Source: Desulfobacteraceae bacterium (GTDB lineage: Bacteria; Desulfobacterota; Desulfobacteria; Desulfobacterales; Desulfosarcinaceae). From it: a stretch of DNA of 64,000 bases. How positions within the stretch are numbered: position 1 is the first letter of the stretch; each line of letters starts with the position of its first letter. Shown here one piece after another: positions 38,939 through 60,983 of this stretch. The notes beneath the pieces are model-generated. The model searched no databases and was not told the origin of the DNA. It saw only the letters and a program-made list of their open reading frames with translations. The stretch lies in NCBI GenBank assembly GCA_050305555.1, contig JBNLFN010000052.1:15207-79206 (forward strand), given 5' to 3'. Position numbers and translations under genes: made by a program.

Positions 38939-38941
38939 CCC

Positions 38942-43071: not shown

Positions 43072-43800
43072 CTATACGCTGGCGGTTTGCCTTTCTTCGC
43101 TATCCACAATGGTCTGAATCACATACTCGATATGACGCTTGGTGGCCATATGGGCATTCATGGGATCGTGTGCTTTGATCGCATTAATGATGGCAATGTG
43201 TTGCTGGTGAATCGTTTCGAAACTCCGCGATTCGCGATACAGGGTGAACAGGTTTTCCTCGATACCATAAGATAGAAAATCGTGGAATTGTTTCATCATG
43301 AAAACCTGCAGTGGATTATGGGTGGCATAGGCAATGGCCATGTGAAACTGTGTGTCCGCATCAGATCCCAGGTTGCCGGCTTGGACTTCATCAACGATCT
43401 CTTTCAGGCTTCTTTCCAAAAAATCTATGTCTGAATCCTGGGCGCGCTGGGCCGCCAACGCCGCTGCGTTGCATTCCAGGCCCATGCGCACTTCAAGAAG
43501 ATCTTGCAGTGTGGCGTTTTGCGATGCCATAACCTTGGCCATGTAGGAGTGTGCCTTACCGCCCGGCGCACAGACAAAAGTCCCCTGCCCCTGCCGTTGT
43601 TCCAACATGCCCATTACCACCAATTTGTTGATGGCGTCGCGCACTGACGTACGACTCACCCGAAACGCATCGGACAATTCCCGTTCGGTCATGATTTTTT
43701 GGCCGGGTTTAAAATCCCCTCGCAGAATGAGGTCATGCAATTGATCAAATACCTGATCGGCAATCCGTTTGGGTTTGATAGGTTTTAGCACCTGGGACAT
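43072..43800 (-). CDS. FadR-family (GntR superfamily) regulator with FCD domain
   Basis: IADQVFDQLHDLILRGDFKPGQKIMTERELSDAFRVSRTSVRDAINKLVVMGMLEQRQGQGTFV followed by a helical FCD domain (LLEVRMGLE.., FHMAIA). Confidence 0.85.
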   Translation of the reverse strand: MSQVLKPIKPKRIADQVFDQLHDLILRGDFKPGQKIMTERELSDAFRVSRTSVRDAINKLVVMGMLEQRQGQGTFVCAPGGKAHSYMAKVMASQNATLQDLLEVRMGLECNAAALAAQRAQDSDIDFLERSLKEIVDEVQAGNLGSDADTQFHMAIAYATHNPLQVFMMKQFHDFLSYGIEENLFTLYRESRSFETIHQQHIAIINAIKAHDPMNAHMATKRHIEYVIQTIVDSEERQTASV

Positions 43801-45279: not shown

Positions 45280-46599
45280 TTATACATTCATGGCCGGGGC
45301 GTGCATCGATCCTTTCTCGCTGGACCGGGCTATGGCTTCATCAACCAGCCCGACAACATAGGGCCCTTCATGTGAAACCGCAACGGATTGATGATCCATG
45401 GTCAGCTTGGTTATGGCGGCCTGGATATCGTCAATCTTGGTGATGCCGATATCCTTTAGCTCTTTTTCTTCTAAATATGGGGAGTAGACATAGACATTGG
45501 ATGCTTTGGCCAGGGCTTGGTAGGTGGTCTGCAGGCACCATTGGTCGATTTCAAAATTCTCCGGGTTGCAACGCTTGGCGACAAATTCTTCTGTGGAGCA
45601 CCCTTCTCTGACCATCTCGCAATATTCAACCGATCCCAAGCCTTCACGGCATTCGCAGGCGATGATGATGGACCCGCCCTCCCGTATGAGATCGCTGGCG
45701 GCAATCAACCCCTTGCTTACTTGATAAAACGTTGCATCCAGAGGGTAGCCACCGGCCGAAGTGATCACCAAGTCGACCGGTTTGGCGACCTTTTGCACGG
45801 ACATCTGTTCGACCTTTTTGCATCCGGCTTGGTGGGCTTCCGTATGGTGGCCGGCAAAGATACCGACCAGTTTGCGTTGTTTGTTAATGATCACATTGAC
45901 AATAAAGTCGACGCCTGCCAGTTGGGCGACTTTTTCGCCTGCTGCGTGGAATGGGTTGCCTTCCAGTTTGCAATTGGTCACATTCGGGTGGTCGATCATC
46001 GCAAAGGAGTGCATGAAGGTCATGGTTTTATAGCTGGAGATGCCGGGCAGTATGGATTTGCGTCCGCCCGAATAGCCGGCGTACATATGGGGTTCGATCA
46101 GGCCGGTTAAAATTTTTAAATCCGCATCCAGGTAGTGCTTGTTGATTTCAATGGCGGCACCGTCGATATCCGCGATATGTCGCAGGTCCTCCGCTTTGCG
46201 GCAGTAGTGGTTCTCAATACGGTAATTGGCCATGATCTCGGCGCCCACCATCTGTTCGAGCTCTTGATCTAAATTGGGCCGGTGCATGCCGGTGGCGATC
46301 AAAATAACAATATTTTCACGCGCGATACCTGAAGATTCCAATGTGTTTAATATCGGCGGCAGGATGATCTTGTTCGGCACCGGCCGCGTAATATCGGAAA
46401 TAACCACGCAGGCGTTTTTGCGGCCTTGGGCCACTTGGGCCAAGGGTGGTGCGCCAATGGGGTTGCTGATCGCATCTTGCACACACTTTTCAGGGTTGGG
46501 CAGGGGCGCAGCCGGGTTCGGATTCAGCATAATGGCATCTTCGGGCACTTCGATTTCTAACTCTTTTTCACCGCATAAAATTTTGGCCTTCATAGCCAC
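45280..46599 (-). CDS. larA: nickel-pincer-dependent lactate racemase LarA
   Basis: ...NPIGAPPLAQVAQGRKNACVVISDITRPVPNKIILPPIL...IVILIATGMHRPN... is the LarA/DUF2088 signature. GGAGGTG RBS. Confidence 0.85.
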   Translation of the reverse strand: MAMKAKILCGEKELEIEVPEDAIMLNPNPAAPLPNPEKCVQDAISNPIGAPPLAQVAQGRKNACVVISDITRPVPNKIILPPILNTLESSGIARENIVILIATGMHRPNLDQELEQMVGAEIMANYRIENHYCRKAEDLRHIADIDGAAIEINKHYLDADLKILTGLIEPHMYAGYSGGRKSILPGISSYKTMTFMHSFAMIDHPNVTNCKLEGNPFHAAGEKVAQLAGVDFIVNVIINKQRKLVGIFAGHHTEAHQAGCKKVEQMSVQKVAKPVDLVITSAGGYPLDATFYQVSKGLIAASDLIREGGSIIIACECREGLGSVEYCEMVREGCSTEEFVAKRCNPENFEIDQWCLQTTYQALAKASNVYVYSPYLEEKELKDIGITKIDDIQAAITKLTMDHQSVAVSHEGPYVVGLVDEAIARSSEKGSMHAPAMNV

Positions 46600-47245: not shown

Positions 47246-47261
47246 TGGTATGGATATTGCT
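47246..47261 (+). promoter_or_regulatory. sigma-54 promoter candidate for the 47.5-58.9 kb operon
   Basis: TGGTAT-GGATA-TTGCT with correct GG-N10-GC spacing, 265 nt upstream of the ATG at 47526. Confidence 0.55.
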
Positions 47262-47425
47262 CTCAGGAAATACTAAAGGTCTTACCAATAGGGCCGGCGG
47301 TGCTGGGCACCTAATAAGTAAAATATTTAATAAAACAAGTAAATTAATGGCGTATTAAAAAATATATCCGAAAAAAAATGATTTTATCAGTTGACGAAGG
47401 GGGAAAAGCGGTGTAGCCACATTAT

Positions 47426-47436
47426 TGGTAGTACCA
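47426..47436. promoter_or_regulatory. palindromic TGGTAGTACCA box (candidate FadR/GntR operator)
   Basis: A perfect 5-N-5 palindrome within ATTATTGGTAGTACCATAAT, between the sigma-54 promoter and the start codon. The same 11-mer occurs at 62849 and TGGTATTACCA at 59188. Confidence 0.5.
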
Positions 47437-47525
47437 TAATACCTATGGTGCACATGCCACTATATTCGGTTGACCTGCATTCTGGTGATGGGATTTTAAT
47501 AATTGAAAGGGGCGCAAAACAACGC

Positions 47526-49280
47526 ATGCAAAGGGTCGCAGATTCTAAGATAGCGAATGTGATGAAGATGAGATCGGATTATGTTTCGGGATGGCTGGTC
47601 TGTATGCTGATATTTTTCTTGTTCAATTCGGTTGCCGTGGCCGGCTGGCGCATCGAAGGCGCGCGGTTTTCCCAATCGGTACACGCCGACACCTCTTGTG
47701 TGGACTGCCATTCGGACATCGGGGATCCTGACCACCATCCGGACCCAGGACATGTGAAAAAAAAGATGGTGGATTTTTTTGATGCGCAAAGCTGTTTGGA
47801 GTGTCATGAAGAAGTGCAAGGTGAGATAGAGGACGATGCCGAGCATGGCGGTGAGACGGTTGAGGATGTTCAGCGCTTTCTCAATTGCATTGCCTGTCAT
47901 GATCCCCATTACGAAGGTGCGCCGGAGCATATCCCAACCGGCGAAACAACGTCCTATTCCGGGGACGATGAAAACTGCATGGCCTGCCACCAGGCGGTTT
48001 CACCCAAAGATCCTGACGCAGTCAGGAAAAATCGCGAGTTTTGTTCTGCCTGCCATGTCATTGGCAAGCAGATGCCCGCAAGTGTGCCTGTCATGGATCC
48101 GGCGCAATATGACCAATCTGCCCATGCTACCTTGGATTGTCTGACCTGTCATCCCAAAGCCGCGCAATACGAGCATCATCTCCAGATTTCCGCGGATTGC
48201 GGTCAATGTCACACGCGCCACGAAGCGTCAGTGACCCATGATGCCCACAGCAACGTATCCTGCCAAGCCTGCCATCTGGGGAGTGTGGTGCCCAAGCGAG
48301 ATGCCCAAACCCACGCCGTGCTTTGGGAGCGGGCGACGCTGCCCGGCACCGTCACGATGCTGCACAACTTTGTCAAACCGGATGGTCAAGGGTGCACCCG
48401 ATGCCATTACGATAACAATCCTGTTGGGGCGGCGGCCATGGTTTTGCCGTCCAAAAGCGTATTGTGCATGCCCTGTCATGCCGCCACACTCACTGCCGGC
48501 GATATGACCACCCTGGTTTCGTTGACTGTTTTTGCCATCGGTATGTTGGGATTTGTCTCCTTGTGGTTTTCCGGCAGCTTTGCCGGCAGTGCCGGCACCC
48601 ATGTGGTGACCAATGCCTTGCAGGCCCTGGCAAAGACCTTCGCCGTGCTGTTTTCACCCAAGCTCGGCAATATATTAAAAACCCTCTGGTACGATGTGCT
48701 GCTTCAGCGGCGTCTTTACCAGCGATCCCCCCGGCGGTGGGCCATTCACGCCTTAATTTTCTGGCCTTTTGCGATCCGCTTCGTTTGGGGAATCGTCGCC
48801 CTGGTTTTGACCACCGGGTTGAAAGACTTCCCAATTGCCTGGGTGTTGATCGACAAGAATCATCCTGCCACGGCTCTCGTTTTTGATCTGACCGGCCTCT
48901 GTTTGGTGGTCGGCATCCTATTGGCCATGATTCGCGGCAGTGAGGCGGATAAAACGCGCGCTCCAGGTCTGCCGGCACAAGATCGCCTGGCCCTGATTCT
49001 GATCGGCGCCATTGCTCTGGTCGGTTTTGTCATCGAGGGTATGCGTATCGCCATGACCGGCGTCCAGGGACCGGCGGCCTTTGCTTTTATCGGCTATGGC
49101 ATCAGCAAACTGTTCTCGGGCATGCAGGGACTCACCGAGGCATATGGGTATCTATGGTACCTGCATGCCGTTCTAACCGGTGCATTTGTCGCTTATCTGC
49201 CCTTTAGCCGCATGATGCACATCATCATGTCGCCTGTGGTGATGGCCATGAATACGGCCACTGAAAAGGAACACCATTAA
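47526..49280 (+). CDS. decahaem c-type cytochrome fused to a NarI/DsrM/HdrE-type membrane cytochrome b
   Basis: Signal anchor, then ten CxxCH motifs (CVDCH, CLECH, CIACH, CMACH, CSACH, CLTCH, CGQCH, CQACH, CTRCH, CMPCH). The C-terminal ~250 aa have five TM helices with IHALIFW, YLHAVL and PFSRMMHI motifs of the NarI-like family. Confidence 0.8.
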   Translation: MQRVADSKIANVMKMRSDYVSGWLVCMLIFFLFNSVAVAGWRIEGARFSQSVHADTSCVDCHSDIGDPDHHPDPGHVKKKMVDFFDAQSCLECHEEVQGEIEDDAEHGGETVEDVQRFLNCIACHDPHYEGAPEHIPTGETTSYSGDDENCMACHQAVSPKDPDAVRKNREFCSACHVIGKQMPASVPVMDPAQYDQSAHATLDCLTCHPKAAQYEHHLQISADCGQCHTRHEASVTHDAHSNVSCQACHLGSVVPKRDAQTHAVLWERATLPGTVTMLHNFVKPDGQGCTRCHYDNNPVGAAAMVLPSKSVLCMPCHAATLTAGDMTTLVSLTVFAIGMLGFVSLWFSGSFAGSAGTHVVTNALQALAKTFAVLFSPKLGNILKTLWYDVLLQRRLYQRSPRRWAIHALIFWPFAIRFVWGIVALVLTTGLKDFPIAWVLIDKNHPATALVFDLTGLCLVVGILLAMIRGSEADKTRAPGLPAQDRLALILIGAIALVGFVIEGMRIAMTGVQGPAAFAFIGYGISKLFSGMQGLTEAYGYLWYLHAVLTGAFVAYLPFSRMMHIIMSPVVMAMNTATEKEHH

Positions 49281-49344
49281 ACTGTGAATCATCCGGATTT
49301 GGATGGTATCGCATCATAACCCCCTTTGATGGAGGAATTGAACC

Positions 49345-50727
49345 ATGGATGACAATATCAAAAATGCCCTCAAAGCGATTGTGGGGGAGGAGAACCTGAC
49401 CGACCAGCTTATCGATATGGTGTCGTATTCCTATGACGCTTCTGAGCACAGCCACCGCCCGGATTGTGCGGTGTGGGCAACGACCACCGAACAGGTCTCC
49501 CAAATCATGAAGTTGGCCACTGAACACAAAATTTCCGTGATTCCCAGAGGGGCCGGCACCGGTCTTTCAGGTATGGCGGTACCGGTGCAAGGCGGTATCG
49601 TGCTGGACTTAAACCGCATGAACAAAATTCACAAGATCAGTATCGAAGATCGCCTTGCCGTCGTAGAACCGGGAGTGATCTATGCGGATCTGGACCAGGC
49701 GCTGGCCCCCAGCGGTTTTTGTTTTCCGCCCGATCCCGGTAGCGGAACCGTTTGCACCCTGGGCGGCAATGTGGCCACCAACGCCGGTGGCGTAAAAGGG
49801 GCCAAATACGGCACCACCCGCGATTATATTTTGGGCCTCGAAGTCGTACTGGCCGACGGCCGTGTGATGAATACCGGCTCATCCACCATTAAATGTGTTT
49901 CCGGTTTTGACCTGACGCGATTGATCGTGGGCTCGGAAGGGACCTTGGGTGTGGTCACCAAAATCACCATGAAGATCAATCCCCGGCCCAAGGCAAGCAG
50001 TACGGCAGTCGCCACCTTTGAAAACCTTGAAGATGCCGGCAAAGCGGTAACCCAGATCATGTCCTCGGGGATTATTCCGGCGGTGATGGAGATTATGGAT
50101 CGGCCGACCATCCAAGCCATTAATCAGAATACCGAGTTGGGTCTGCCGGAAGTGGACGCCATGCTGTTGGTGGAAACCGACGGCTATACCCAGGGGGAGA
50201 CGGACCACCAACTGGAAAAAGTGATCGCCGTATTCAATGCCAACAATCCGTTGGAAGTCAAGCAGGCCAAATCCAAAGAAGAGGCCATGGATCTGTGGAA
50301 GGCCCGCAAATCGGCTTATGCGGTATTGGCTCGCATCCAGACCCACTTCGTGCTGGAGGATGTCACGGTGCCCATGGGCAAGATCGCCGACCTGCTGCGC
50401 GGTATCGGTGAAATTTCCAAAAAATACAATTTACAAATTGCGACTTTCGGTCACGCCGGTGATGGCAATTTGCATCCCCAGATTCTCTATGATGGATACA
50501 ATCCTGAAGAGGTGGAACGCATGGAAAAGGCCGTGGCCGATCTATTCCAATTATCGATTGACCTAAATGGAACCTTGACGGGTGAGCACGGTATCGGCAT
50601 CGCAAAGGCGCCGTTTATGTCGATGGAGCACGATGACGTTGAAATGGATGTCATGCGCATGGTGAAGCGCACATTTGACCCCAACAATATTTTGAACCCC
50701 GGCAAGATGGCTCTGGAGGTGAACTAA
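49345..50727 (+). CDS. FAD-linked oxidase, GlcD/D-lactate dehydrogenase type
   Basis: VIPRGAGTGLSGMAVP, FAD_binding_4 layout, C-terminal GTLTGEHGIGIAK...DPNNILNPGKM. GGAGGA RBS. Confidence 0.85.
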   Translation: MDDNIKNALKAIVGEENLTDQLIDMVSYSYDASEHSHRPDCAVWATTTEQVSQIMKLATEHKISVIPRGAGTGLSGMAVPVQGGIVLDLNRMNKIHKISIEDRLAVVEPGVIYADLDQALAPSGFCFPPDPGSGTVCTLGGNVATNAGGVKGAKYGTTRDYILGLEVVLADGRVMNTGSSTIKCVSGFDLTRLIVGSEGTLGVVTKITMKINPRPKASSTAVATFENLEDAGKAVTQIMSSGIIPAVMEIMDRPTIQAINQNTELGLPEVDAMLLVETDGYTQGETDHQLEKVIAVFNANNPLEVKQAKSKEEAMDLWKARKSAYAVLARIQTHFVLEDVTVPMGKIADLLRGIGEISKKYNLQIATFGHAGDGNLHPQILYDGYNPEEVERMEKAVADLFQLSIDLNGTLTGEHGIGIAKAPFMSMEHDDVEMDVMRMVKRTFDPNNILNPGKMALEVN

Positions 50728-50728
50728 C

Positions 50729-51832
50729 ATGGAACCCAAATATGAATTTGAAAGAAAATACCGCGAACAGATCCTGCAGTGCTCCCGCTGTGGCTATTGT
50801 CAGGCGGTTTGTCCGGTTTTCGGCGCGACCCAGCGTCCGGCGTTTAATGCCCGCGGCAAAATGCTGCTGCTCAAAGAGGTCATGGACAACAAGATTGACC
50901 TTGACGACGAGATGATCGAAACGATGTTCCAGTGTACGACCTGCGCGTCCTGCCACGAAAACTGCCCGTCCGGCGTCAACGTACCTGAGATCATCAAGCA
51001 GGTGCGCAAGGACATGGTCAACATCGGATCGTGCCATCCGGCCTTCACCGGTATGAACGAGGTGCTGCAAAAGCATACCAATATTTATGCCGAAGACGAG
51101 CCCGAAGATTTCGATCGTGAGCGCAATCAGAAGGCCGATTATGTTTATTTTATCGGCTGTGTGGGCCAATACCGTGAAGATGAAGCCACCGAAGCTGCCC
51201 TTGATCTGCTCGACCGATTGGACGTCAACTATACTCTTATTGACGAAGTGTGCTGCAGTGGTGTACTTGAAGATGTCGGCCATAAAATAAATCGCACGCT
51301 GGCCGAGCAAAACATCGAAACCATCTTGTCAACCGGCGCGAAAACAATTATCACCGGATGCCCGTACTGCTACCGCACGTTTAAAAACAAAGAGGAATAT
51401 GTCGCATTGCGCGACAAAGGGTTGAACCTGGTGCACATTTCCCAGTTCCTGAAAGATTTTGATTTGGGTGTGTCCACCGATTTGAGGGTCACCTATCATG
51501 ATCCCTGTGACCTGGGACGTCATTGTGGTATCTATGAAGAGCCGCGCGAGACCCTGCGCAAGATTGCCCCCAATTTCGTTGAGCTGCCCCATAACCATGC
51601 CGGTTCCCTGTGCTGCGGCTCCGGCGGTGGCGCCCGTGGGGCCTATGCCAAAAACTCATTGGCCATGGCCCGACGTCGGCTCAATGAGGCATTGGACATA
51701 GGGGCGGATGTGTTGGTGACCGAATGCAACTCTTGTGTGCATAACTTATCCAACTCGAAGCTGCGCAAAGACAAGATCCGTATTTGCAATACGACTGAGT
51801 TTATCAATGAGTTAATGGAAGACGCAGAGTAG
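50729..51832 (+). CDS. GlcF/HdrD-like iron-sulfur protein (2x[4Fe-4S] + two CCG domains)
   Basis: CSRCGYCQAVCP and CTTCASCHENCP; CCG-type motifs CCSG..., HDPCDLGR, CCGSGGG, CNSCVHN. Starts 1 nt after the GlcD stop. Confidence 0.8.
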   Translation: MEPKYEFERKYREQILQCSRCGYCQAVCPVFGATQRPAFNARGKMLLLKEVMDNKIDLDDEMIETMFQCTTCASCHENCPSGVNVPEIIKQVRKDMVNIGSCHPAFTGMNEVLQKHTNIYAEDEPEDFDRERNQKADYVYFIGCVGQYREDEATEAALDLLDRLDVNYTLIDEVCCSGVLEDVGHKINRTLAEQNIETILSTGAKTIITGCPYCYRTFKNKEEYVALRDKGLNLVHISQFLKDFDLGVSTDLRVTYHDPCDLGRHCGIYEEPRETLRKIAPNFVELPHNHAGSLCCGSGGGARGAYAKNSLAMARRRLNEALDIGADVLVTECNSCVHNLSNSKLRKDKIRICNTTEFINELMEDAE

Positions 51833-51943
51833 CAGTGCAAAGGATCGCCATTGTGTCAGCGTTCAACGGTGCCGAACCTATACGATTTGATTGCATCACA
51901 ACGACCAAAATAACCTTAACGCAAGAGACGAGGAGGAACAGAC

Positions 51944-52369
51944 ATGGATATCAAGGGTTACAACATGCCCGAAGAGCTGATCTATGACAAAGACCATTTC
52001 TGGATCAAAAAAGAAGGTGATCTGCTGGTCATGGGTATGGATGATTTTGCCCAGAAACTGGCCGGTGAGATTGTTTACATTCAGCTTCCCGATGATGGGA
52101 AAAAAATAAAAGCAGGTAAAAAGTTTGCGAAAGTCGAATCGGGAAAATGGTTGGGTAAAGTGTATGCCCCGGTGAATGGCGTTATCGACTCCGTCAACGA
52201 AGATTTGGAATCCAATCCCGGCCTGGTCAACGAAGACAGCTATGGCAAAGGATGGATGTATAAAATCAAGCCGGCCGACACCGAAGGTTTGGAAAATTTG
52301 ACCCAGGGCGCAGATGCGCTGCAAACCTGGATGGAAGCAGAAATCGAAAAGTATGCCGACAATGAATAA
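51944..52369 (+). CDS. GcvH-fold lipoyl-carrier protein (LbpA-like), not in a glycine-cleavage context
   Basis: HFWIKKEGDLLVMGMDDFAQKLAGEIVYIQLP..G..IKAGKKFAKVESGKWLGKVYAPVNGVIDSVNEDLESNPGLVNEDSYGKGWMYKI. The Lys in ESGKW aligns with the lipoyl-Lys of the ESVKA motif. GAGGAGGA RBS. Confidence 0.85.
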   Translation: MDIKGYNMPEELIYDKDHFWIKKEGDLLVMGMDDFAQKLAGEIVYIQLPDDGKKIKAGKKFAKVESGKWLGKVYAPVNGVIDSVNEDLESNPGLVNEDSYGKGWMYKIKPADTEGLENLTQGADALQTWMEAEIEKYADNE

Positions 52370-53567
52370 AGCGAAAAATAGCCGTTACCGCGTGCAGCAA
52401 TGCATGCAAATGGCCGCCTGTACCAATTGCCAGTCCTGTGCCGATGTCTGCCCGGCGGTGAAGGCCTCCGGGGACGGCCAACTTTCCGCATTGCATCGCA
52501 TGAAGGGGCTGCAACGGATTCTGAAAAGCCGCACGGGGGGTTTTTTTTCCAAGCTGTTGGGTGCCAAGCCGCTGACCGACGAACAGTGGAAAACATACTC
52601 TGAAACGGTTTATCGTTGCACGTTATGCGGCAATTGCCAGGAGGTCTGCCCGGTGGGGATCCACCTTAAAGACTTGTGGCTTTCATTGCGTGAAGATCTG
52701 GTGGACACCCAGCATTTTCCAAAGAAAATCAACATGATCAAGCGCAATTTGGAATCCAGCCGCAATGTCTTTAACGAAGACAATGAAGAGCGCGCCGAGT
52801 GGGTAGAGGACATGGACGATCCGCCGGACGATCTCTATGTCAAGGACCAGGCCGAAGTGGTTTACTTTACCGGATGCACGGCAGCCTATTTTCCGGTCGC
52901 CCAGAAGATTCCCCTGGCCCTGGCCGACATCCTGGTCCAGGCGGATATTGATTTTTCACTCTTGGGCGAAGAGGAGTGGTGCTGTGGGTTCCCCCTGTTG
53001 GGCGCCGGGCTGAAGGATATGTTCGGCGAATTTGCCGAGCACAACATTGAAGCGGTTTTGGAAAAGGGTGCTTCCCAAGTGGTCTTTGCGTGCCCCTCTT
53101 GTTATGAGATGTGGAAAGCGCATTACCCGTATAAAGCGCGGGGTATTCAGATTTATCATAGCACCCAGTATCTGGAAAGCATGATTGAGCAAGGCCGTCT
53201 GCCGTTTAAAACCCTTGATTTGACGGTTACCTATCATGATCCGTGCGATCTGGGTCGCGGCGCACGGGAATTTGATGCCCCCAGGGCGGTGATTCAAGCC
53301 ATACCGGGCGTTAAATTTGTGGAACTGCCCAACAATCGCGAGAACTGCAATTGCTGTGGCGGCGGCGGGAACCTGGAGATGGTGGATGCCGACTTGTCGG
53401 CCCGGATTGCCCAAAACAAGGTGGAAGAGGCGGTTTCCACAGGCGCGGATGCCATTGTGACCTCTTGCCAGCAATGTGTGCGTACCATGTTGACCTATGC
53501 CAAGCGCAACAAGATTGCCATCGAGGTCCTGGACATCACCCAACTGGTACACCGGGCAGTGGTATAG
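52362..53567 (+). CDS. HdrD-like iron-sulfur protein (2x[4Fe-4S] + two CCG domains)
   Basis: CTNCQSCADVCP and CTLCGNCQEVCP; WCCGFP, CPSCYEMW, HDPCDLGRG, CNCCGGGGN, CQQCVRT. The ATG at 52362 overlaps the GcvH-like stop by 8 nt. Confidence 0.8.
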   Translation: MNKAKNSRYRVQQCMQMAACTNCQSCADVCPAVKASGDGQLSALHRMKGLQRILKSRTGGFFSKLLGAKPLTDEQWKTYSETVYRCTLCGNCQEVCPVGIHLKDLWLSLREDLVDTQHFPKKINMIKRNLESSRNVFNEDNEERAEWVEDMDDPPDDLYVKDQAEVVYFTGCTAAYFPVAQKIPLALADILVQADIDFSLLGEEEWCCGFPLLGAGLKDMFGEFAEHNIEAVLEKGASQVVFACPSCYEMWKAHYPYKARGIQIYHSTQYLESMIEQGRLPFKTLDLTVTYHDPCDLGRGAREFDAPRAVIQAIPGVKFVELPNNRENCNCCGGGGNLEMVDADLSARIAQNKVEEAVSTGADAIVTSCQQCVRTMLTYAKRNKIAIEVLDITQLVHRAVV

Positions 53568-53579
53568 CATTACGTTGGC

Positions 53580-54098
53580 ATGGGCCGGCGAGCCATACGG
53601 AATAAACTTACAGCACTTGAGCAGGCCGTTGTTGTGGAAAACCGGGATCAAATTCAGGTGCGGCTCGAGGGCGGGCAGGCTTGTGTGAGCTTTGCCGGCG
53701 GACGTTTTTTTGTCAGACAACAGAACCACCATGACGCGTCGGCCGGTTGTCCCATGCAATTGATGCTTGGCGCTTTAGGGTCGTGCATCATATTGACCCT
53801 CCATGCGGTCGCCCAACACAAAGGCATCGTGTTGCGCGATACCTACTTGGCACTCGAATATCACCGGAACTCAAACGATGGCACCCGTTTCGAGGTGACA
53901 TTGAACCTGGATGATCACCTGACGGACCGAGAGCGCAAGATCTTGTACCAGTCCGCTCGCATTTGTGAGGTGGGCAAAATATTGAAGAGTGATGTGCAGA
54001 TCGATTACCGCCTGTTGGAACCGCAATCAGCTCGAGCATCTAATCCGACAACGGGCGGCCCCGGCCCACGGGCAAGCAAAAGCATGGCGGAGCGATAA
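53580..54098 (+). CDS. OsmC/Ohr-family thiol peroxidase-like protein
   Basis: GCPMQLMLGALGSCIILTL (first conserved Cys) and SARICEVGKIL (second conserved Cys) in OsmC-like spacing. Confidence 0.7.
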   Translation: MGRRAIRNKLTALEQAVVVENRDQIQVRLEGGQACVSFAGGRFFVRQQNHHDASAGCPMQLMLGALGSCIILTLHAVAQHKGIVLRDTYLALEYHRNSNDGTRFEVTLNLDDHLTDRERKILYQSARICEVGKILKSDVQIDYRLLEPQSARASNPTTGGPGPRASKSMAER

Positions 54099-54136
54099 GA
54101 AAACCGCTTAACCTATCAAAGGAGTATACGGCAAGT

Positions 54137-55729
54137 ATGACCCCGTGGCGTTTACTTGATACACCGCCCATGTCGGCCGCAGACAATATGGCCTTGGACG
54201 AGACCCTGTTGGAGCTCAAAGGCGAGGGCCGGTCTCCGAACACCATTCGGTTTCTGCAATTTAAACCGCGTTGTGTACTGGTGGGCTATCATCAATCGGT
54301 TCAGGAAGAGATACGGCTGGATTATTGCCGGGAACATGGGATCGATATCAATCGCCGCATCACCGGCGGCGGCGCCATTTTTTTCGATGAGAATCAGTTG
54401 GGATGGGAAATCTACTGCGATAAGAGCTTTTTCGATATTGTGATTCCCACTAACCGTTTGTTTAAGACCCTTTGCCAACCGGTGGCCACGGCGCTGGGGC
54501 GCCTGGGCGTCGCGGCTGAATTTCGCCCCCGCAACGATATCGAGATCAACGGTCGTAAAATATCCGGTACCGGCGGTACGGAATCTGAAGGCGCATTTAT
54601 GTTCCAGGGCACCATGCTGGTTGATTTTGATGTGAATACCATGCTGCGTGCCTTGCGCATCCCGGTGGAAAAACTCAAGGCCAAAGAGATCGATTCAGTC
54701 AAAGACCGTGTGACCTGTCTGAATTGGGAACTGGGCTATACGCCCTCCCTTGCGGAAATTAAAACCGCGATTCAATACGGTTTTGAAAAGCACCTGGGCA
54801 TATGCTTGCAAACGGGCGATCTAACCGCCCAAGAGCAGGAAGTATTTGAGCGCAAGCGCAAGCGGTATCACGCTTGGGAGTGGATCGATCGGGTGAAACC
54901 GAGATTTCAAAAACGGGAGGCTGTCCAATCTTCCTATAAGGCCGATGCAGGAATGGTGCGCTTTACCCTGGTGGTCAATCTAGCCCAACGCCGCTTGAAA
55001 GATGTTTTCATCACCGGTGATTTTCTGTCTTTTCCCAGTCGTGCGCTGTACGATCTGGAGTCCGGTTTACGGGGCATGCCCCTGGACCGTGATAAACTGA
55101 TGGATGCCATTCGTTGCCATTTCGATGAAGGCCGCATCGTCATTCCCGGTATGACGGTTGAAGATTTTACAAAACCGTTGGACCAAGCCCTTGAAAAGGT
55201 AGAGATTACCAAAACCGGCATTCCATTGGAATTGGCCAATTTGATCTCTGTGGCCAACGGCTCTTTTGAAGACATTTTGCGCCAAGACCCATCTGTCCTG
55301 TTGCTGCCCTATTGCGCTAAATTGACGGATTGCGACCTTCGCTATACCAAAGGGTGCAACGTTTGTGGGCAGGAAGCGTGCACCATCGGTCCGGCCTGGA
55401 CCATGGGGCGCAAGTGCAAAATGAAAGTGCTGACGGTTACGAGTTTTGAAGACTTGTGGGCCGAGTTGACCCATATGCGGCAAAAAGGGATCACCGCCTA
55501 TATTGGGTGTTGCTGCCAACCTTTTTTTGCCAAACATGTGGATGATTTTAAACGCAGCCGAATGCCGGGCATCCTGCTCGATATCGACAACACCACCTGC
55601 TATGACCTGGACCAGGCCAAAGCGGCCTATGCCGGCAGTTTTGAAAGTCAAACCGAATTGAATCTGGATCTTTTGGAAGCCGTGCTCCAAGCCGGCGCCG
55701 ACATAAAAGCCCAAGGCGGGGTGGCCTGA
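54137..55729 (+). CDS. lipoate/octanoate-protein ligase (LplA-type, with accessory domain) fused to a C-terminal DUF116-like Cys-rich domain
   Basis: MALDETLL..., RRITGGGAIFFD, NDIEINGRKISGTGG (LplA catalytic motifs). The last ~150 aa read LLLPYCAKLTDCDL..GCNVCGQEACTIG...AYIGCCCQPFF...ILLDIDNTTCYD, the DUF116 pattern. AAAGGAG RBS. Confidence 0.8.
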   Translation: MTPWRLLDTPPMSAADNMALDETLLELKGEGRSPNTIRFLQFKPRCVLVGYHQSVQEEIRLDYCREHGIDINRRITGGGAIFFDENQLGWEIYCDKSFFDIVIPTNRLFKTLCQPVATALGRLGVAAEFRPRNDIEINGRKISGTGGTESEGAFMFQGTMLVDFDVNTMLRALRIPVEKLKAKEIDSVKDRVTCLNWELGYTPSLAEIKTAIQYGFEKHLGICLQTGDLTAQEQEVFERKRKRYHAWEWIDRVKPRFQKREAVQSSYKADAGMVRFTLVVNLAQRRLKDVFITGDFLSFPSRALYDLESGLRGMPLDRDKLMDAIRCHFDEGRIVIPGMTVEDFTKPLDQALEKVEITKTGIPLELANLISVANGSFEDILRQDPSVLLLPYCAKLTDCDLRYTKGCNVCGQEACTIGPAWTMGRKCKMKVLTVTSFEDLWAELTHMRQKGITAYIGCCCQPFFAKHVDDFKRSRMPGILLDIDNTTCYDLDQAKAAYAGSFESQTELNLDLLEAVLQAGADIKAQGGVA

Positions 55730-56790
55730 TGGACTTGCAGCCTTGCGATATTTTAGTGGTCGGCGCAGGGCCGGCCGGGGCGGCCGCGGCACGATCCGCC
55801 GCCCTTTGTGGTGCTAAGGTGCTGCTGGTGGAGCGTCGATCCATCGTGGGTATACCGGTGCAATGTGCCGAATTTATTCCGGCCCTGCTATTGCGCAAGG
55901 TCAACTTGGGACGTGGGTTTGTGGTCCAAACCATCAAAGGCATGAAAACCTTTCGCCCTGAAACACCGGAAACCGTTACCAAAGCACCCGGATATATCAT
56001 TCGCCGGGATCTGTTCGATCAGGCCCTTGTCCAGGCCGCCCAAGATGAAGGCGCTCGAGTCTTGACGGCTACCCGGGCTGTGGATCACTGGGACTCCGGA
56101 GCGGTTATCCTAAAACAGAAAGAGGGTCGCTACATTAAAGTGCAACCCTGGATTATTATCGGTGCCGATGGCCCCCATTCCACTGTGGGGCGCTGGGTCG
56201 GCGCCATAAACATGCATTTATTGCCCGCAGCCCAGGTGACCATGGCGTTGACCCGGCCGCTAAACTACACGGAAGTCTATTTTCGCCCTGATATTTTTGC
56301 AGGATATGGATGGCTTTTTCCCAAAGGCCGATTCGCCAATGTGGGCTTGGGATTGAAAAAAGACGACACTTCCAGTGAGCGCATTCGAAAACGCTTGGAT
56401 CGTTTTGTGGCGGACTTGAAATCTCAAAATAAAATTCAAGGCCATCCGGTTTCCTATACGGCCGGGTGGATTCCGGCCGAACCCGTGCGCCAAACCGTAT
56501 ACAACCACATTGCTCTGGTGGGCGATGCGGCGGGCCACACCCATTCCATTACCGGCGCCGGTATCTTCGCGGCGGTGATCGGCGGGCAGATGGCCGGCAA
56601 GTGGGCCGGCCGTGCCGTCAAAGCTAAAGACATCAATCTTTTGGCCCGCTATGACGATGAGTGGCAGGATTTGATGGCGGATACTTTGCAACGGGCTCAT
56701 GAACGGCGCCGTTTTATGGAAGCGCAATGGCATGATTTCAGGACCACGGTGCAGCACTGTTGGGTCGCCTATCGGGAATATTATGGGTAA
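55729..56790 (+). CDS. geranylgeranyl-reductase-family FAD oxidoreductase (LipT-like)
   Basis: DILVVGAGPAGAAAARSAALCGAKVLLVERR and LVGDAAGHTHSITGAGI. Its ATG overlaps the preceding TGA. Confidence 0.8.
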   Translation: MDLQPCDILVVGAGPAGAAAARSAALCGAKVLLVERRSIVGIPVQCAEFIPALLLRKVNLGRGFVVQTIKGMKTFRPETPETVTKAPGYIIRRDLFDQALVQAAQDEGARVLTATRAVDHWDSGAVILKQKEGRYIKVQPWIIIGADGPHSTVGRWVGAINMHLLPAAQVTMALTRPLNYTEVYFRPDIFAGYGWLFPKGRFANVGLGLKKDDTSSERIRKRLDRFVADLKSQNKIQGHPVSYTAGWIPAEPVRQTVYNHIALVGDAAGHTHSITGAGIFAAVIGGQMAGKWAGRAVKAKDINLLARYDDEWQDLMADTLQRAHERRRFMEAQWHDFRTTVQHCWVAYREYYG

Positions 56791-57733
56791 ATTAGAGCAC
56801 CGCTTGGAAATAGCCCGTACCCTTTCCTGGGAGAACTTGGGCAAACGCATCACCTTCTATCTGCCGGGCATGTTTCAGCTCAATGGCCATACCGGGCGCT
56901 ATCCCGCGCTCTCCATCACGGGTGCGGATTGCGCTCTGCAATGCGACCATTGCCAGGGCAAGATATTATCCGGCATGGTCTCTGCCACCACACCGGATGA
57001 CTTGGTTGCCAAATGCCGGCGACTGGCCCGAAAAGGTCATTTGGGCGTATTGATCAGTGGGGGCTGCGATGCGCAGGGCCGCATGCCATGGAAAGACTTT
57101 TTTCCGGCGATTGTCGCCGTCAAACAGAGCACCGGGCTGTTTGTTTCCGTTCATTGCGGCCTGGTGGACCCGGCCACGGCAGACCAGCTCAAACAAGCCG
57201 GCGTGGATCAAGCACTGATCGATGTCATTGGCGATGACGCCACCTTTCAGACCATCTACCATGTCCCGTTTGGGGTAGAGCGCATCGCTTCGGCCATGGC
57301 GGCCTTAGCCGCAGCGCAAATCCCCATGGTGCCGCACATCGTTTGCGGCATTGGCTACGGCCAAATCCAGGGTGAATACAAAGCCGTGGAGATGATTTCC
57401 CGATTTGATATTGCCCAGCTGGTGGTTGTCGCGTTGATGCGTATTCCGGGCACACCCGCTGCCAGTGCCGCACCTCCGCAAGCTGAACAGGTCGCCGATA
57501 TTATCGCTGAAGCCCGTATGCAGATGCCTGAGACACCCATCAGTTTGGGCTGCGCGCGTCAACGCGGTAACACGCTCTTGGAAGAGTTGGCCATCGATGC
57601 CGGTATCAACCGTATGGCGCTGCCATCGGAAGAGGCCCTGGCACGGGCCAAGGGCTATGGATTGGAGATGCAATTCCAACCCACATGCTGTTCGGTGACG
57701 GACAGTTACACTACGGCGGGGTGGCATGGATAG
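56783..57733 (+). CDS. radical SAM protein, LipS1/LipS2-type lipoyl synthase candidate
   Basis: SITGADCALQCDHCQG (CxxxCxxC), LISGGCD, C-terminal ..QPTCCSV. Overlaps the previous gene by 8 nt. Confidence 0.75.
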   Translation: MGKLEHRLEIARTLSWENLGKRITFYLPGMFQLNGHTGRYPALSITGADCALQCDHCQGKILSGMVSATTPDDLVAKCRRLARKGHLGVLISGGCDAQGRMPWKDFFPAIVAVKQSTGLFVSVHCGLVDPATADQLKQAGVDQALIDVIGDDATFQTIYHVPFGVERIASAMAALAAAQIPMVPHIVCGIGYGQIQGEYKAVEMISRFDIAQLVVVALMRIPGTPAASAAPPQAEQVADIIAEARMQMPETPISLGCARQRGNTLLEELAIDAGINRMALPSEEALARAKGYGLEMQFQPTCCSVTDSYTTAGWHG

Positions 57734-57838
57734 ACCGATCTGATGGTGTTGGCCAAATGGCGGCATTGTTCCATTTGGCTTTGTCGGTATGGACCCAAAA
57801 GCCATGGCAGGCCTAATGCCTGCAGAAGATGAGGGGGT

Positions 57839-58936
57839 ATGGAAGATAATAATTGTAAGAAAACCCAGGAGAGTCCGGAATATTTGCGCATGAGTTTGGC
57901 GGCGGCCATGACCTTGGGATTTAAACCCGGGCTGTTTTACCGCGGCGCCAAGCTATATTGCATCAACCTGCTATTGAATTACAACAGTGGGTGTGCTGCG
58001 CGTTGCGCCTATTGCGGACTTTCCAAGAAACGTGAGGGGCAATACAGCGAAAAAAGTTTTATTCGCGTGACCTGGCCCACCTATGCCCTGGACGATATTA
58101 TTGCGCGTATTTCCCGGCGTCTCAACCGGGTCAAACGCATCTGCATCTCCATGATTACCAATACGCGGGCCATCGCCGATACCCGGGACATTTGCGCCAG
58201 GCTGCGGGCCGGGTTTGATGTGCCCGTTTCAGTTTTGGTCTCTCCCACCATTGTTTCACGTCAGGATCTGCTCTCCTTTAAAGCGGCGGGGGCTGACAAA
58301 CTCGGGGTGGCCATTGACCTGGCGACACCCGAATTGTTTGAACAATATCGCGGAAAAGGTGTGGGCGGCCCCCATCAGTGGGATCGCTACATGGCGTGCC
58401 TGAGCTCGGCCATTGAGATTTTCGGCCATCACAATGCAGGTGCCCATTTGGTTACCGGGATGGGCGAGAGTGAAAAACAGATGGTGGAGATTATCCAGCG
58501 GGTACAAAACATGGGCGGCTGGACCCATCTGTTTTCCTTCTTTCCGGAAGCCGAATCCCAGATGAAGGATCATCCCATGCCGGATATGGCTCACTATCGC
58601 CGCATTCAACTGGCCCGGTTCCTTATCGACGAGAACATATCCCACGCCCGGCAGTTCGCCTATGACCCACATGAGCGCATCGTTGATTTTGGTATTCGGC
58701 CCCAACGGCTGGCAGCTGTGATCGACAGCGGCGAACCGTTTCGCACCAGCGGATGTGAAGGCTATGACGGTGAAGTGGCCTGCAACCGGCCATATGCCAA
58801 TTCGCGTCCAGGGCCGGATATTCGAAATTTTCCCTTTGCTCCCGATTCAGCGGACATTGAGCGTGTTCGGCGGCAAATGGGGCTGGCGGCATCGGTGGAT
58901 AAAAAATCAAACGAAAAAAAGAAATTAGCATCATGA
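57839..58936 (+). CDS. radical SAM protein, LipS1/LipS2-type lipoyl synthase candidate (biotin-synthase-like)
   Basis: NYNSGCAARCAYCGLS (CxxxCxxC), and later SGCEGYDGEVACNRPYAN as extra Cys ligand candidates. Confidence 0.75.
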   Translation: MEDNNCKKTQESPEYLRMSLAAAMTLGFKPGLFYRGAKLYCINLLLNYNSGCAARCAYCGLSKKREGQYSEKSFIRVTWPTYALDDIIARISRRLNRVKRICISMITNTRAIADTRDICARLRAGFDVPVSVLVSPTIVSRQDLLSFKAAGADKLGVAIDLATPELFEQYRGKGVGGPHQWDRYMACLSSAIEIFGHHNAGAHLVTGMGESEKQMVEIIQRVQNMGGWTHLFSFFPEAESQMKDHPMPDMAHYRRIQLARFLIDENISHARQFAYDPHERIVDFGIRPQRLAAVIDSGEPFRTSGCEGYDGEVACNRPYANSRPGPDIRNFPFAPDSADIERVRRQMGLAASVDKKSNEKKKLAS

Positions 58937-59257: not shown

Positions 59258-60343
59258 ATGAGAAGAAGCACGATGATGAAAATGTTATTCGCTTTGTTTG
59301 CAGTGATGTTCATCCTCACCGCAACACCGGCCATGGCTGCTAAAGATAAACCCGTCTTGTTGAAGGTGCCTGTCACGTTTTCCACGGCGCTTCCCGGGCT
59401 TGGCGATGGCATTCTTTACATTTCCAACAATATCGCCGAAGTCAGCGGGAACAGTATCAAAATGAAGGTCTATGAGCCCAAAAAACTGATCGCGCCGTTT
59501 GAAATCCTGGACTCCGTATCCAAGGGCAAGATCAATGCGGGTTACTCAGTGGCCGGCTATTGGACCGGAAAGATACCCGCAGCGCCGTTGTTCTCCGCCG
59601 TGCCTTTTGGACCGGAAGCCGGCGAGTACCTGGCGTGGTTTTACTATGGCAACGGGATGAAACTTTACCAGGAGATGTACGATCAAGCGGGATTTAATGT
59701 AAAAGTATTGCTGGCTGCCATCATCGCCCCGGAGACCTCCGGCTGGTTCAAAAATCCGATCACCAGCAAAGACCAACTCCAAGGAATGCGCATGCGCTTT
59801 TTCGGTCTCGGCGGTGCGGCCATGCAGAAGCTCGGGGTTCAAACCAGTTTGCTTCCCGGCGGCGAGATTTTTCCGGCCTTGGAAAAGAACGCCATCGATG
59901 CCACTGAATTTTCCATGCCGGCCATCGACCAGCGCCTGGGTTTTTATAAAGTCGTGAAGTACAACTATTTTCCGGGTTGGCATCAGCAAGCCACCACCTG
60001 TGAGCTGCTGATCAACAAGGATACCTGGAACAAGATGAGCGATCATCAGAAAAAGGTCCTGGAAGTGACCGCCAAGGCGTCCGTGGCTGACAGCTTTGCC
60101 CACACCGAGGCCATCCAGGGCAAGGTGATTCGTGAAAATGCTACCAAGCGCGGTGTTAAAAACATGTATTGGTCCCAAGATATGCTGGATACCTTTAAGG
60201 CGGCATGGCAAGATGTCGCAAAGGAACAAGCCGCCAAGGATGCCTTTTTCAAAAAGGTCTGGGATGATTTTTCCGCTTTCCATAAGGATTATGCGTATTG
60301 GGCATCGCTCGGGTTTTTACCGCGTCCTGCCCCCCCCAAATAA
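59258..60343 (+). CDS. dctP: TRAP transporter solute-binding protein (COG4663-like DctP family)
   Basis: Signal peptide ..TATPAMAAKDK, then a DctP-type fold with GYWTGKIPAAPLFSAVPFG and RMRFFGLGG motifs. AAAGGAGG RBS. Confidence 0.85.
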   Translation: MRRSTMMKMLFALFAVMFILTATPAMAAKDKPVLLKVPVTFSTALPGLGDGILYISNNIAEVSGNSIKMKVYEPKKLIAPFEILDSVSKGKINAGYSVAGYWTGKIPAAPLFSAVPFGPEAGEYLAWFYYGNGMKLYQEMYDQAGFNVKVLLAAIIAPETSGWFKNPITSKDQLQGMRMRFFGLGGAAMQKLGVQTSLLPGGEIFPALEKNAIDATEFSMPAIDQRLGFYKVVKYNYFPGWHQQATTCELLINKDTWNKMSDHQKKVLEVTAKASVADSFAHTEAIQGKVIRENATKRGVKNMYWSQDMLDTFKAAWQDVAKEQAAKDAFFKKVWDDFSAFHKDYAYWASLGFLPRPAPPK

Positions 60344-60384
60344 TCATCAAAGCTTAAGTATTCATTCGTGATGCGCTCCCACAT

Positions 60385-60412
60385 CCCCCTCTCCCCCCTG
60401 AGGGAGAGGGGG
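60385..60412 (+). other. intercistronic GC hairpin between dctP and dctQ
   Basis: CCCCCTCTCCC-ccctga-GGGAGAGGGGG, a perfect 11-bp stem. Confidence 0.6.
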
Positions 60413-60434
60413 CAGGGAGCAAGGAAGGAATAAC

Positions 60435-60983
60435 ATGGATCAAGAGACGACAACGGCACCTAAATTCTGCGTGGTGATGGACGAGACCATCCGGCGGATC
60501 GGGCGCACCTTTGCGTGGCTCAATACCATCCTGGTTGGAGTGATCATTGTTCAGGTGTTTCTGCGCTATGTGATGGGAATGGGTCTGGTGGTCCTGGAAG
60601 AGTTGCAATGGCATCTTTACGCCGTCGGGATTATTTACGGGCTTTCCTATTGCGTGGTCCAGAATTCTCACATTCGTTTGGACCTTTTGCACGCCAACTT
60701 CAGTCAACGAAACAAGGAATGGGTTGAGCTTTTTGGAAATATGCTGCTCCTGAGTCCCATCGTCATTATCATTCTCATCCATGGCTGGAGTTTTCTTGTT
60801 GATTCATGGGTTATTAGAGAAAGATCGGACTCTCCCCTCGGGCTTCCGGCCCGTTACTTTATCAAATCATTCCTGGTAACAGGGTTCGGCCTTCTGGCGT
60901 TGGCCGTCATATCAAGAATGGTCAGGAGTGTCGCCTATTTACTAAGCCACAACAAACCGGAGAAACACAGCGATGCTGATTAA
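60435..60983 (+). CDS. dctQ: TRAP transporter small permease
   Basis: 182 aa with four TM segments and a DctQ-like N-terminal motif (..LNTILVGVIIVQVFLRYV). Overlaps dctM by 11 nt. Confidence 0.8.
   Translation: MDQETTTAPKFCVVMDETIRRIGRTFAWLNTILVGVIIVQVFLRYVMGMGLVVLEELQWHLYAVGIIYGLSYCVVQNSHIRLDLLHANFSQRNKEWVELFGNMLLLSPIVIIILIHGWSFLVDSWVIRERSDSPLGLPARYFIKSFLVTGFGLLALAVISRMVRSVAYLLSHNKPEKHSDAD

Follow-up and report, generated by a model that had tools for sequence, protein, structure and literature searches.

A conserved gene module joins a GcvH-family protein to an HdrD-like CCG protein and a membrane cytochrome in anaerobic bacteria: a possible lipoyl-based disulfide couple

The 64,000-nt stretch of DNA analysed in this study (referred to below as the window; Desulfobacteraceae bacterium assembly GCA_050305555.1, contig JBNLFN010000052.1, positions 15,207 to 79,206) carries, at about 47562-58936 (+), a putative operon of ten co-directional genes, which were identified with Pfam and NCBIfam models on the window open reading frames (ORFs). 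The operon encodes a GcvH-family protein, an HdrD-like protein with CCG motifs, a membrane cytochrome and a set of lipoate-assembly enzymes (Table 1). The GKW-type subfamily of GcvH is designated here GcvH*, and its HdrD-like partner HdrD2. We propose, as a reading whose chances we judge to be even, that lipoylated GcvH* may be the dithiol/disulfide substrate of a membrane complex resembling HdrDE and Tmc. The broader view is that lipoyl-GcvH-family proteins could act as a soluble electron carrier of anaerobes, i.e. a third “heterodisulfide” beside CoM-S-S-CoB and DsrC, which interchangeable dehydrogenases would reduce and an HdrD-like enzyme would reoxidise; this view is advanced more tentatively and falls somewhat short of an even chance. 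The route by which electrons from cytoplasmic oxidations of the lactate, acetoin or pyruvate type reach the membrane or periplasm in anaerobes is a long-standing question, and the module offers a testable partner (a putatively lipoylated carrier encoded beside enzymes for its maturation) for HdrD-like CCG proteins, which are mostly without a known one.

The distribution of the module was surveyed in 79 genome loci (seeded with an HdrD2 alignment and mapped by phmmer) and in 80 metagenome contigs (seeded with GcvH*). This analysis revealed a conserved core, composed of a multihaem cytochrome c fused to a NarI-like cytochrome b (or the b protein alone), GcvH*, HdrD2 and, usually, a dedicated lipoate-protein ligase LplA, in Desulfobacterota, Chloroflexota and some Actinomycetota, together with a soluble version in Bacillota and Syntrophia. 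The gene order in many metagenome-assembled genomes (MAGs) of Desulfobacterota is cytochrome, (GlcD, GlcF), GcvH*, HdrD2, LplA, (LipT, LipS1, LipS2), and that of Chloroflexota is b, HdrD, GcvH*, LplA. HdrD2 adjoined GcvH* in 55 of the 57 metagenome contigs with at least 1.3 kb of downstream sequence (a count corrected for three ORF-overlap artefacts), and the cytochrome gene lay upstream wherever the contig allowed. With occurrences in over 100 independent contigs, the arrangement is far beyond chance, and the conservation of gene order, for which the initial annotation had called for a neighbourhood survey, is borne out. Thousands of 90%-identity clusters were found for each of HdrD2 and GcvH*, and 896 clusters (at E <= 1e-30) for the cytochrome family. 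The module is widespread, and its parts are misannotated as GcvH, nitrate reductase gamma subunit and HdrD.

The genes of the putative input to the module fall into two classes, as was found by comparing the loci with a cytochrome gene and at least 3 kb of upstream sequence. Nine loci contain GlcD/GlcF between the cytochrome and GcvH*, and 2-oxoacid dehydrogenase genes are upstream in none of these nine. In 16 of the 20 loci devoid of GlcD/GlcF, the genes immediately upstream are those of a lipoyl enzyme complex of the acetoin/pyruvate type (E1alpha, E1beta, E2 and Lpd), in many cases accompanied by AcoX and a short-chain dehydrogenase. The two kinds of input were never present together in the Desulfobacterota loci compared. 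A lipoyl carrier is easy to reconcile with the Aco-type context, since dihydrolipoyl groups are in any case substrates of E2 and E3, and less easy to reconcile with the GlcD/GlcF context of the window.

The soluble version, in which the cytochrome is replaced, was identified in Sporomusa silvacetica DSM 10669 and a Syntrophomonadaceae MAG (Bacillota), and in Smithella. Its gene order is acoA, acoB, acoX, E2, (CMD), LipB/M-like, LipA-like, GcvH*, flavin adenine dinucleotide (FAD) oxidase, HdrD, LplA, GcvH*, LplA, LipT, LipS2, LipS1, (DUF116). In Bacillota, GcvH*, the FAD oxidase and HdrD thus take the place of the E3 gene in an acoABXC-like cluster, and no Lpd gene was found within 21 kb of the soluble-version clusters. 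The CCG protein and the carrier form the constant pair, and the electron module differs from locus to locus (b, c::b or soluble FAD oxidase), which parallels the use of HdrDE and HdrABC on one heterodisulfide.

The assignment of the carrier to the GcvH family is firm at the level of profile scores (PF01597, 133.8 bits; NF002270, 135.7 vs a cut-off of 117; TIGR00527, 117.6 vs 115.85), and the protein is 40-45% similar, over its full length, to H proteins of solved structure. Its K68 aligns with the lipoyl Lys (ESVK motif) of the GcvH proteins of Thermus thermophilus (1onl) and Escherichia coli (3a8i), which upholds the lipoyl-Lys context read from the sequence by the initial annotation. The residues flanking this Lys are ESGKWLGK and not the canonical ESVK(A/T)(A/V)SD. 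All of the HdrD-linked GcvH-like ORFs of the 79 genome loci share the motif (E/Q)(S/A)GKW(L/V/A)G, and GKW-type carriers span Desulfobacterota, Chloroflexota, Actinomycetota, Bacillota and Syntrophia. The GKW motif was present in 120/120 of the closest database clusters, every one of which is annotated as “glycine cleavage system protein H”; it was also borne by 49 of the best 150 members of a library of representatives at 50% identity, in which canonical ESVKA types appear from about rank 40. Judged by their sequences, these GcvH-like proteins are a distinct subfamily which keeps the lipoyl Lys.

The GcvH* of the window has no cysteine, and 119 of its 120 closest homologues have exactly one. 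In the sequences inspected this single Cys sits in the context NxDCYGKGW; the corresponding residue is S99 in the window protein and Pro in canonical GcvH. Another type of GcvH-related protein was observed on a 5.2-Mb Deltaproteobacteria MAG contig (locus L013), where genes for two larger proteins ending in a GCV_H domain (16876-18120, 415 aa; 18326-19123, 266 aa) lie downstream of a Glc-type module, at a distance of a few kb.

HdrD2 was compared with the HdrB-type pattern, which consists of two CxxCxxCxxxC ferredoxin motifs and two CX31-39CCX35-36CXXC motifs. Its ferredoxin motifs are located at C20-C30 and C86-C96, and its CCG motifs at C172/C207C208/C244/C247 and C295/C331C332/C369/C372. 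HdrD2 and the GlcF-like protein are alike in this respect, each containing two ferredoxin-type and two complete CX(30-35)CCX(34-36)CXXC motifs. The start of HdrD2 at 52362 (401 aa) is favoured by the lengths of its orthologues (median 398 aa).

The closest solved relative of HdrD2, in both sequence and fold, is mycobacterial EtfD (187 bits, TMq 0.69), followed by LutA and HdrB. The EtfD chain (PDB 9ojn) contains, like the HdrD2/cytochrome pair, a b haem, two cubane clusters and two CCG clusters; it differs in being a single fused polypeptide that obtains its electrons from ETF. In EtfD the Cys-Thr of CCG1 gives a linear 3Fe-4S cluster, a His completes the second cluster, and both clusters are shielded and non-catalytic, so that the protein acts as an electron wire (PMC13083937). 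HdrD2, by contrast, is separate from the b protein, and its alignment with 9ojn places WCCG against CTG and CPSC against CPHC, i.e. CCG1 retains both of its adjacent Cys residues, and Ser takes the place of the His. This apparent retention of the positions altered in the non-catalytic EtfD supports the view of HdrD2 as an enzyme acting on lipoyl-GcvH*.

The cytochrome has an N-terminal signal/anchor helix, ten CxxCH motifs (with Pfam cytochrome c7/c3 domains) and five C-terminal transmembrane (TM) helices. The b domain matched Nitrate_red_gam slightly under the Pfam cut-off (21.3 vs 22.9), with weak matches also to DsrM and QmoC. Three His residues, His453, His592 and His610, are invariant in 69 cytochrome homologues; H592 and H610 lie in TM5 with the NarI-like spacing of 18 residues, and H453 is the sole invariant His of TM2. 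Comparison of the predicted b-domain fold placed EtfD first and NarI second (probability 1.00); the TM-scores are low owing to the moderate quality of the model (pLDDT 65). Since both HdrD2 and the modelled b domain match EtfD best, together they look like a split EtfD/HdrDE module. In Desulfobacterota the orthologues of the cytochrome have 10-11 haem c motifs fused to b, and in Chloroflexota and Actinomycetota they are mostly b-only.

The last four genes of the operon appear to correspond to the lipS1-slpl(AB)-lipT-lipS2 set described in PMC10332631. For the two radical SAM proteins the best models were LipS1 and LipS2, with scores just under the cut-offs; their CxxxCxxC motifs lie at aa 78 (of the long ORF) and aa 52, respectively. 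The ligase gave LplA-B_cat, Lip_prot_lig_C and LplB matches and has an extra C-terminal DUF116. In the related loci HdrD2 is usually followed by a short, divergent ligase of the LplA+LplB type; the window has only the long, DUF116-fused form. DUF116 makes up the C-terminal ~150 aa of this ligase, and is also encoded by a standalone gene which ends the lipS cluster in S. silvacetica (locus L080, 15772-16341). It may be an unrecognised component of lipoate assembly, as it does not figure in the LipS1/S2 pathway literature examined. In Desulfovibrio-type loci, genes for LplA::radical-SAM (LipA-like) fusions were observed directly upstream of the cytochrome (L026, 6145-7746; L077, 5810-7483; L046, 2910-4523); these loci therefore bear two complete lipoate-assembly routes side by side.

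The data show which genes and motifs are present, that the neighbourhood is conserved, that the carrier subfamily has a signature of its own and that a fusion protein exists. From these sequences we infer the lipoylation of GcvH*, its reaction with HdrD2, the docking of HdrD2 on the cytochrome, which way the electrons flow and what GlcD oxidises, and a mechanism can be outlined as follows. LplA::DUF116, LipT, LipS1 and LipS2 would build the cofactor on GcvH*, which would then be loaded by cytoplasmic dehydrogenases. In the window the loader would be GlcD/GlcF, fed by LarA and the TRAP transporter, with the CCG subunit GlcF reducing lipoyl-GcvH*; elsewhere it would be the E1-E2-Lpd complex of the acetoin/pyruvate type. 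HdrD2, docked to the NarI/EtfD-like b domain from the cytoplasmic side, would interconvert dihydrolipoyl- and lipoyl-GcvH* (the arm being attached to K68) at its two noncubane CCG clusters. The electrons could then pass through the two cubane clusters to haem b and on to menaquinone or, via the fused decahaem domain, to the periplasmic cytochrome pool.

The initial annotation had already suggested that a lipoylated GcvH-like protein, rather than DsrC, is the hub on which the CCG proteins work. The near-obligate trio, the conserved Lys, the HdrB-type motifs and the occurrence of the trio behind E1-E2-Lpd speak for this suggestion, but the completeness of the CCG set does not discriminate between proteins with and without a GcvH neighbour.

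Several observations weigh against the lipoyl-GcvH* reading. HdrD2 paralogues without a GcvH* neighbour retain all ten Cys too, which makes the CCG set insufficient as evidence: on alignment it is necessary, but not sufficient, for disulfide chemistry by HdrD2. The completeness of the set was accordingly rejected as a marker of carrier-linked enzymes, as all homologues, with a GcvH neighbour or not, keep the ten Cys. GlcF, GlpC and LutA keep complete CCG motifs as well, and we know of no thiol substrate for any of them. The b domain has three invariant His, as against the four haem-ligating His of the NarI pattern (two in TM2 and two in TM5). The scores with the Tmc, Hmc and DsrMK equivalog models (TmcB, 79 vs 735; HmcF, 60 vs 750; DsrK, 97 vs 400; DsrM, 24 vs 300) are far below the cut-offs, and the module is therefore outside the Tmc/Hmc/DsrMK families. 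In Firmicutes, GcvH is an intermediate of the lipoyl relay, and the gene of GcvH* adjoins lipoate-assembly genes. Finally, a natural fusion protein of 1391 aa, found in two independent assemblies (L161, 3234-7409; L162, 3209-7384), joins an HdrD-like part (2xFer4/2xCCG) to a GlcD-like FAD oxidase and three GcvH-like domains. Its existence is in favour of the reading, but the lipoyl Lys is lost in all three of its GcvH-like domains, so that a physical link between the partners is not bound to mean lipoyl chemistry. The gene for this fusion adjoins those of a two-component system and a UbiA-family prenyltransferase.

A further difficulty is connected with the electron donor. The GlcD-like protein scored 509.6 against the equivalog cut-off of 567.9 (TIGR00387), and its PDB matches (glycolate oxidase, LctD and D-LDH) had similar scores. 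LarA, whose gene also lies ahead of that of the cytochrome in 9 other loci, reached 397 against the lactate-racemase equivalog cut-off of 460 (NF033504), with malate-racemase models close behind. Because both proteins remain under their equivalog cut-offs, “lactate” is a substrate that we infer; for GlcD it is probably D-lactate. The link with lactate oxidation drawn by the initial annotation could hold for the class of loci with GlcD/GlcF, but not for the other loci, which do not contain these genes. By textbook values, the redox potential of the lactate couple is about -190 mV and that of the lipoyl couple about -290 mV, so the transfer of electrons from lactate to the lipoyl group is ~100 mV uphill under standard conditions and counts against the proposal in this particular context. 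The lactate link to GcvH* is thus plausible but thermodynamically awkward, and our confidence in it is below that in the core reading.

The most probable of the alternatives is a direct wire, in which GlcD/GlcF and/or HdrD2 would pass electrons through their Fe-S clusters to the b/c cytochrome, and GcvH* would be a lipoate scaffold or relay for clients elsewhere, as is Bacillus GcvH. EtfD, itself a wire, is the nearest solved relative of HdrD2 and the b domain, and GlcD with an FeS/CCG subunit is the known, carrier-free architecture of D-lactate dehydrogenase (PMC4481167). The position of GcvH* beside lipoate-assembly genes, the Lys-less domains of the fusion protein and the lack of specificity of complete CCG motifs for GcvH-linked proteins would also be expected. 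A mere scaffold is, however, hard to square with the 55/57 adjacency and with a GKW motif that is invariant across phyla. Moreover, GcvH* is found beside HdrD2 in many loci with neither LipS1/S2 nearby nor E2, no LipL-type amidotransferase was identified, and HdrD2 retains the catalytic positions that EtfD has lost. On balance we regard the direct wire as unlikely, though deserving of attention.

A role in peroxide or redox defence was also considered, in which electrons from periplasmic cytochrome or quinol would flow through HdrD2 and GcvH* to the OsmC-like peroxidase (AhpD/CMD-like in Bacillota). Ohr, OsmC and AhpD are lipoyl-dependent peroxidases, the OsmC-like gene directly follows HdrD2 in the window, and CMD/AhpD-like genes occur in the Bacillota clusters. 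GcvH-L of Staphylococcus aureus has been reported to promote resistance to oxidative stress (PMC12440151). However, OsmC-like genes were present in 5/115 related loci and CMD genes in 5/115, hence they are accessory, and the OsmC-like protein gave no NCBIfam match and no sequence match among solved structures (PDB); for these reasons OsmC was ruled out as a core component. In addition, the genes that accompany the module encode catabolic dehydrogenases, transporters and hydroxyacid regulators. Mainly because of the rarity of OsmC, we consider this role improbable.

We are equally sceptical of the possibility that GcvH* is a true H protein working with GcvP and GcvT encoded elsewhere, so that HdrD2 and the cytochrome would be a respiratory substitute for dihydrolipoyl dehydrogenase (L-protein) in glycine cleavage or the reductive glycine route. 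The passing of both GcvH NCBIfam cut-offs and the 40-45% similarity to solved H proteins are in line with it. Nevertheless, neither gcvT, gcvP nor an E2 gene was found among the larger ORFs of the 64-kb window that were scanned, as the initial annotation had stated, and the partner-contacting flank of the Lys is altered in every member of the subfamily. The neighbouring genes are those of hydroxyacid/acetoin metabolism and not C1 genes, and the fact that GcvH* has a ligase of its own implies that it is not matured by the usual enzymes.

A sulfur carrier, whose lipoyl arm would hold sulfane sulfur to be oxidised or reduced by the CCG proteins, is highly improbable, even though sHdr-LbpA is the only characterised pairing of lipoate carriers, CCG proteins and LipS1/S2/LipT (PMC6067878, PMC10332631), and a triple-rhodanese/cytochrome cluster lies 10 kb upstream, since the two conserved LbpA cysteines are absent, the operon contains no HdrA, HdrC1B1/C2B2, DsrE, TusA or rhodanese genes, and the neighbourhood is one of organic-acid catabolism.

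The proposed lipoyl-GcvH* complex can be compared with several known systems. HdrDE of Methanosarcina and the Tmc, Hmc and DsrMK(JOP) complexes likewise place a cytoplasmic FeS/CCG protein on a NarI-type five-helix b protein and link a cytoplasmic thiol/disulfide couple to quinone or cytochrome pools; Tmc, Hmc and DsrJ have a periplasmic multihaem c comparable with the decahaem c of the operon. The substrate of HdrDE and DsrMK is CoM-S-S-CoB or DsrC, whereas here it would be a lipoylated GcvH-family protein. The operon also differs from HdrDE, Tmc and DsrMK in having haem c and b in one polypeptide and its own cofactor-assembly genes.

The likeness to the sHdr-LbpA system (PMC6067878, PMC10332631) is that a GcvH-like carrier is encoded together with CCG proteins, and that both systems share the alternative lipoate-assembly set. 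LbpA proteins have two strictly conserved Cys near the N- and C-termini (PMC6067878), and the GcvH* of the window, which has no Cys, cannot be counted among them. Other differences are the membrane cytochrome partner, the absence from the operon of HdrA, C1B1/C2B2 and sulfurtransferases, and the association with hydroxyacid/acetoin catabolism in anaerobes. Of the comparison with LbpA and sHdr made in the initial annotation, the part concerning the lipoate-assembly genes therefore stands, but neither the LbpA cysteines nor the sHdr and sulfurtransferase genes are present in the operon.

The second and third genes of the operon resemble Dld-II (Shewanella oneidensis; DVU3027-28 of Desulfovibrio vulgaris; PMC4481167) and GlcDEF, which combine a GlcD-like protein with a 2x4Fe-4S/2xCCG protein; these known enzymes differ in having no GcvH-like protein, no second HdrD-like protein and no fused multihaem/b link. 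The net job proposed for the module, i.e. the reoxidation of a protein-bound dihydrolipoyl group, is that of dihydrolipoyl dehydrogenase (E3/L-protein). The latter is a flavoprotein disulfide reductase that delivers electrons to NAD+, whereas an Fe-S/CCG protein would here deliver them to a membrane cytochrome or quinone.

According to Tanabe et al., LipS1/S2 are not confined to sHdr organisms and are tied to canonical lipoate genes in Sporomusa; the text of theirs that was consulted contains no description of the HdrD/GcvH*/cytochrome module. Full-text literature searches found no account of the GcvH*-HdrD2-cytochrome arrangement, in agreement with the initial annotation, which had been aware of none. 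The nearest published idea is a speculative lipoyl electron carrier, “LarG”, in Pelobacter carbinolicus.

If the lipoyl-GcvH* reading is true, the module would allow sulfate reducers, Chloroflexota and others to pass electrons from lipoyl chemistry to the membrane and periplasm without NAD, and its protein-based redox couple could be assayed in vitro. Lipoic acid would thereby gain a function other than those in sHdr and the five classical complexes, and the frequent occurrence of LipS1/S2 outside sulfur oxidisers would be explained. Thousands of annotations as “GcvH”, “nitrate reductase gamma” and “heterodisulfide reductase D” would then be corrected.

The junctions of the operon measure, in gene order, 64, 1, 111, -8, 12, 38, -1, -8 and 105 nt, which matches the range of -8 to 111 nt given in the initial annotation; its count of eleven genes fell to ten on recounting. 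Every domain that it had named was recovered in the hidden Markov model searches for which it had asked (Pfam and NCBIfam). Position 47246, given there as the first of the region, proved to be that of a sigma54-like motif and not a gene start, the cytochrome most likely beginning at one of the three ATG codons listed in Table 1. A sigma54 promoter at 47246 was in turn set aside: the number of such motifs in the window as a whole is not above chance, and a motif was found upstream of 6/51 orthologous cytochrome genes, i.e. it is not conserved. Two sigma54 activators are encoded in the window (33061-34509 and 62967-63977, both on the - strand).

Table 1. Features of the operon and its surroundings (coordinates refer to the window)
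Feature	Coordinates	Strand	Remarks
GntR/FCD-family regulator (first of two)	43072-43800	-	typical of hydroxyacid regulons
GntR/FCD-family regulator (second of two)	44317-45147	+	typical of hydroxyacid regulons
LarA-family nickel-pincer nucleotide (NPN)-dependent 2-hydroxyacid racemase	45280-46599	-	Pfam Lar_N + LarA_C; divergent from the operon
sigma54-like -24/-12 motif TGGTATGGATATTGCT	47246-47261	+	two mismatches to TGGCAC-N5-TTGCW; weak lead
Decahaem cytochrome c::NarI/EtfD-type b	47562-49280	+	ATG at 47562, 47568 or 47604; ORF opens at 47391
GlcD-like FAD-dependent 2-hydroxyacid dehydrogenase (Dld-II/LctD/glycolate-oxidase type)	49345-50727	+	PF01565 + PF02913
GlcF-like iron-sulfur protein	50729-51832	+	two CxxCxxCxxxC and two complete CCG motifs
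GcvH-family lipoyl carrier (predicted), 141 aa, “GKW” subfamily	51944-52369	+	PF01597; K68 in ESGKWLG
HdrD-like CCG protein (HdrD2)	52362-53567	+	two 4Fe-4S and two 5-Cys CCG motifs; 8-nt overlap with the GcvH-like gene
OsmC-like protein	53580-54098	+	PF02566, 48.2 bits; alternative GTG start at 53634
Lipoate-protein ligase LplA + LplB-like domain::Cys-rich DUF116	54137-55729	+	domain matches
Geranylgeranyl-reductase-family flavoprotein, LipT by context	55729-56790	+	TIGR02032, 192 vs cut-off 158.8
LipS1-like radical SAM lipoyl synthase subunit	56783-57733	+	NF053742, 215.8 vs cut-off 230; ORF opens at 56699
LipS2-like radical SAM lipoyl synthase subunit	57839-58936	+	NF053743, 221.2 vs cut-off 270
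TRAP transporter DctP-DctQ-DctM	59258-62361	+	sigma54-like motif ahead at 58956-58971

Proteins identical to those of the operon were found in the MAG GCA_050297975.1, and the nearest named relatives are Desulfobacteraceae MAGs. The TRAP transporter genes of the window have counterparts in other genomes, as DctM or DctP adjoins the module in 11/115 loci. An Rfam scan of the window gave zero matches.

Several other parts of the window may be mentioned. An ORF of 525 aa at 3813-5390 (+) gave no Pfam match, and two unusually long radical SAM proteins (~600 aa) are encoded at 12506-14329 (-) and 31107-32873 (-). The region 18942-22895 (+) is an ordinary beta-oxidation block (thiolase, 3-hydroxyacyl-CoA dehydrogenase, a helix-turn-helix-cupin regulator and acyl-CoA dehydrogenase). 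The triple-rhodanese/cytochrome cluster referred to above (36080-39604, +) encodes a three-rhodanese protein, a 576-aa multihaem cytochrome (Cytochrome_cB, octahaem tetrathionate-reductase-like) and a cytochrome b561/Ni_hydr_CYTB protein, and has the look of a sulfur-compound/cytochrome module.

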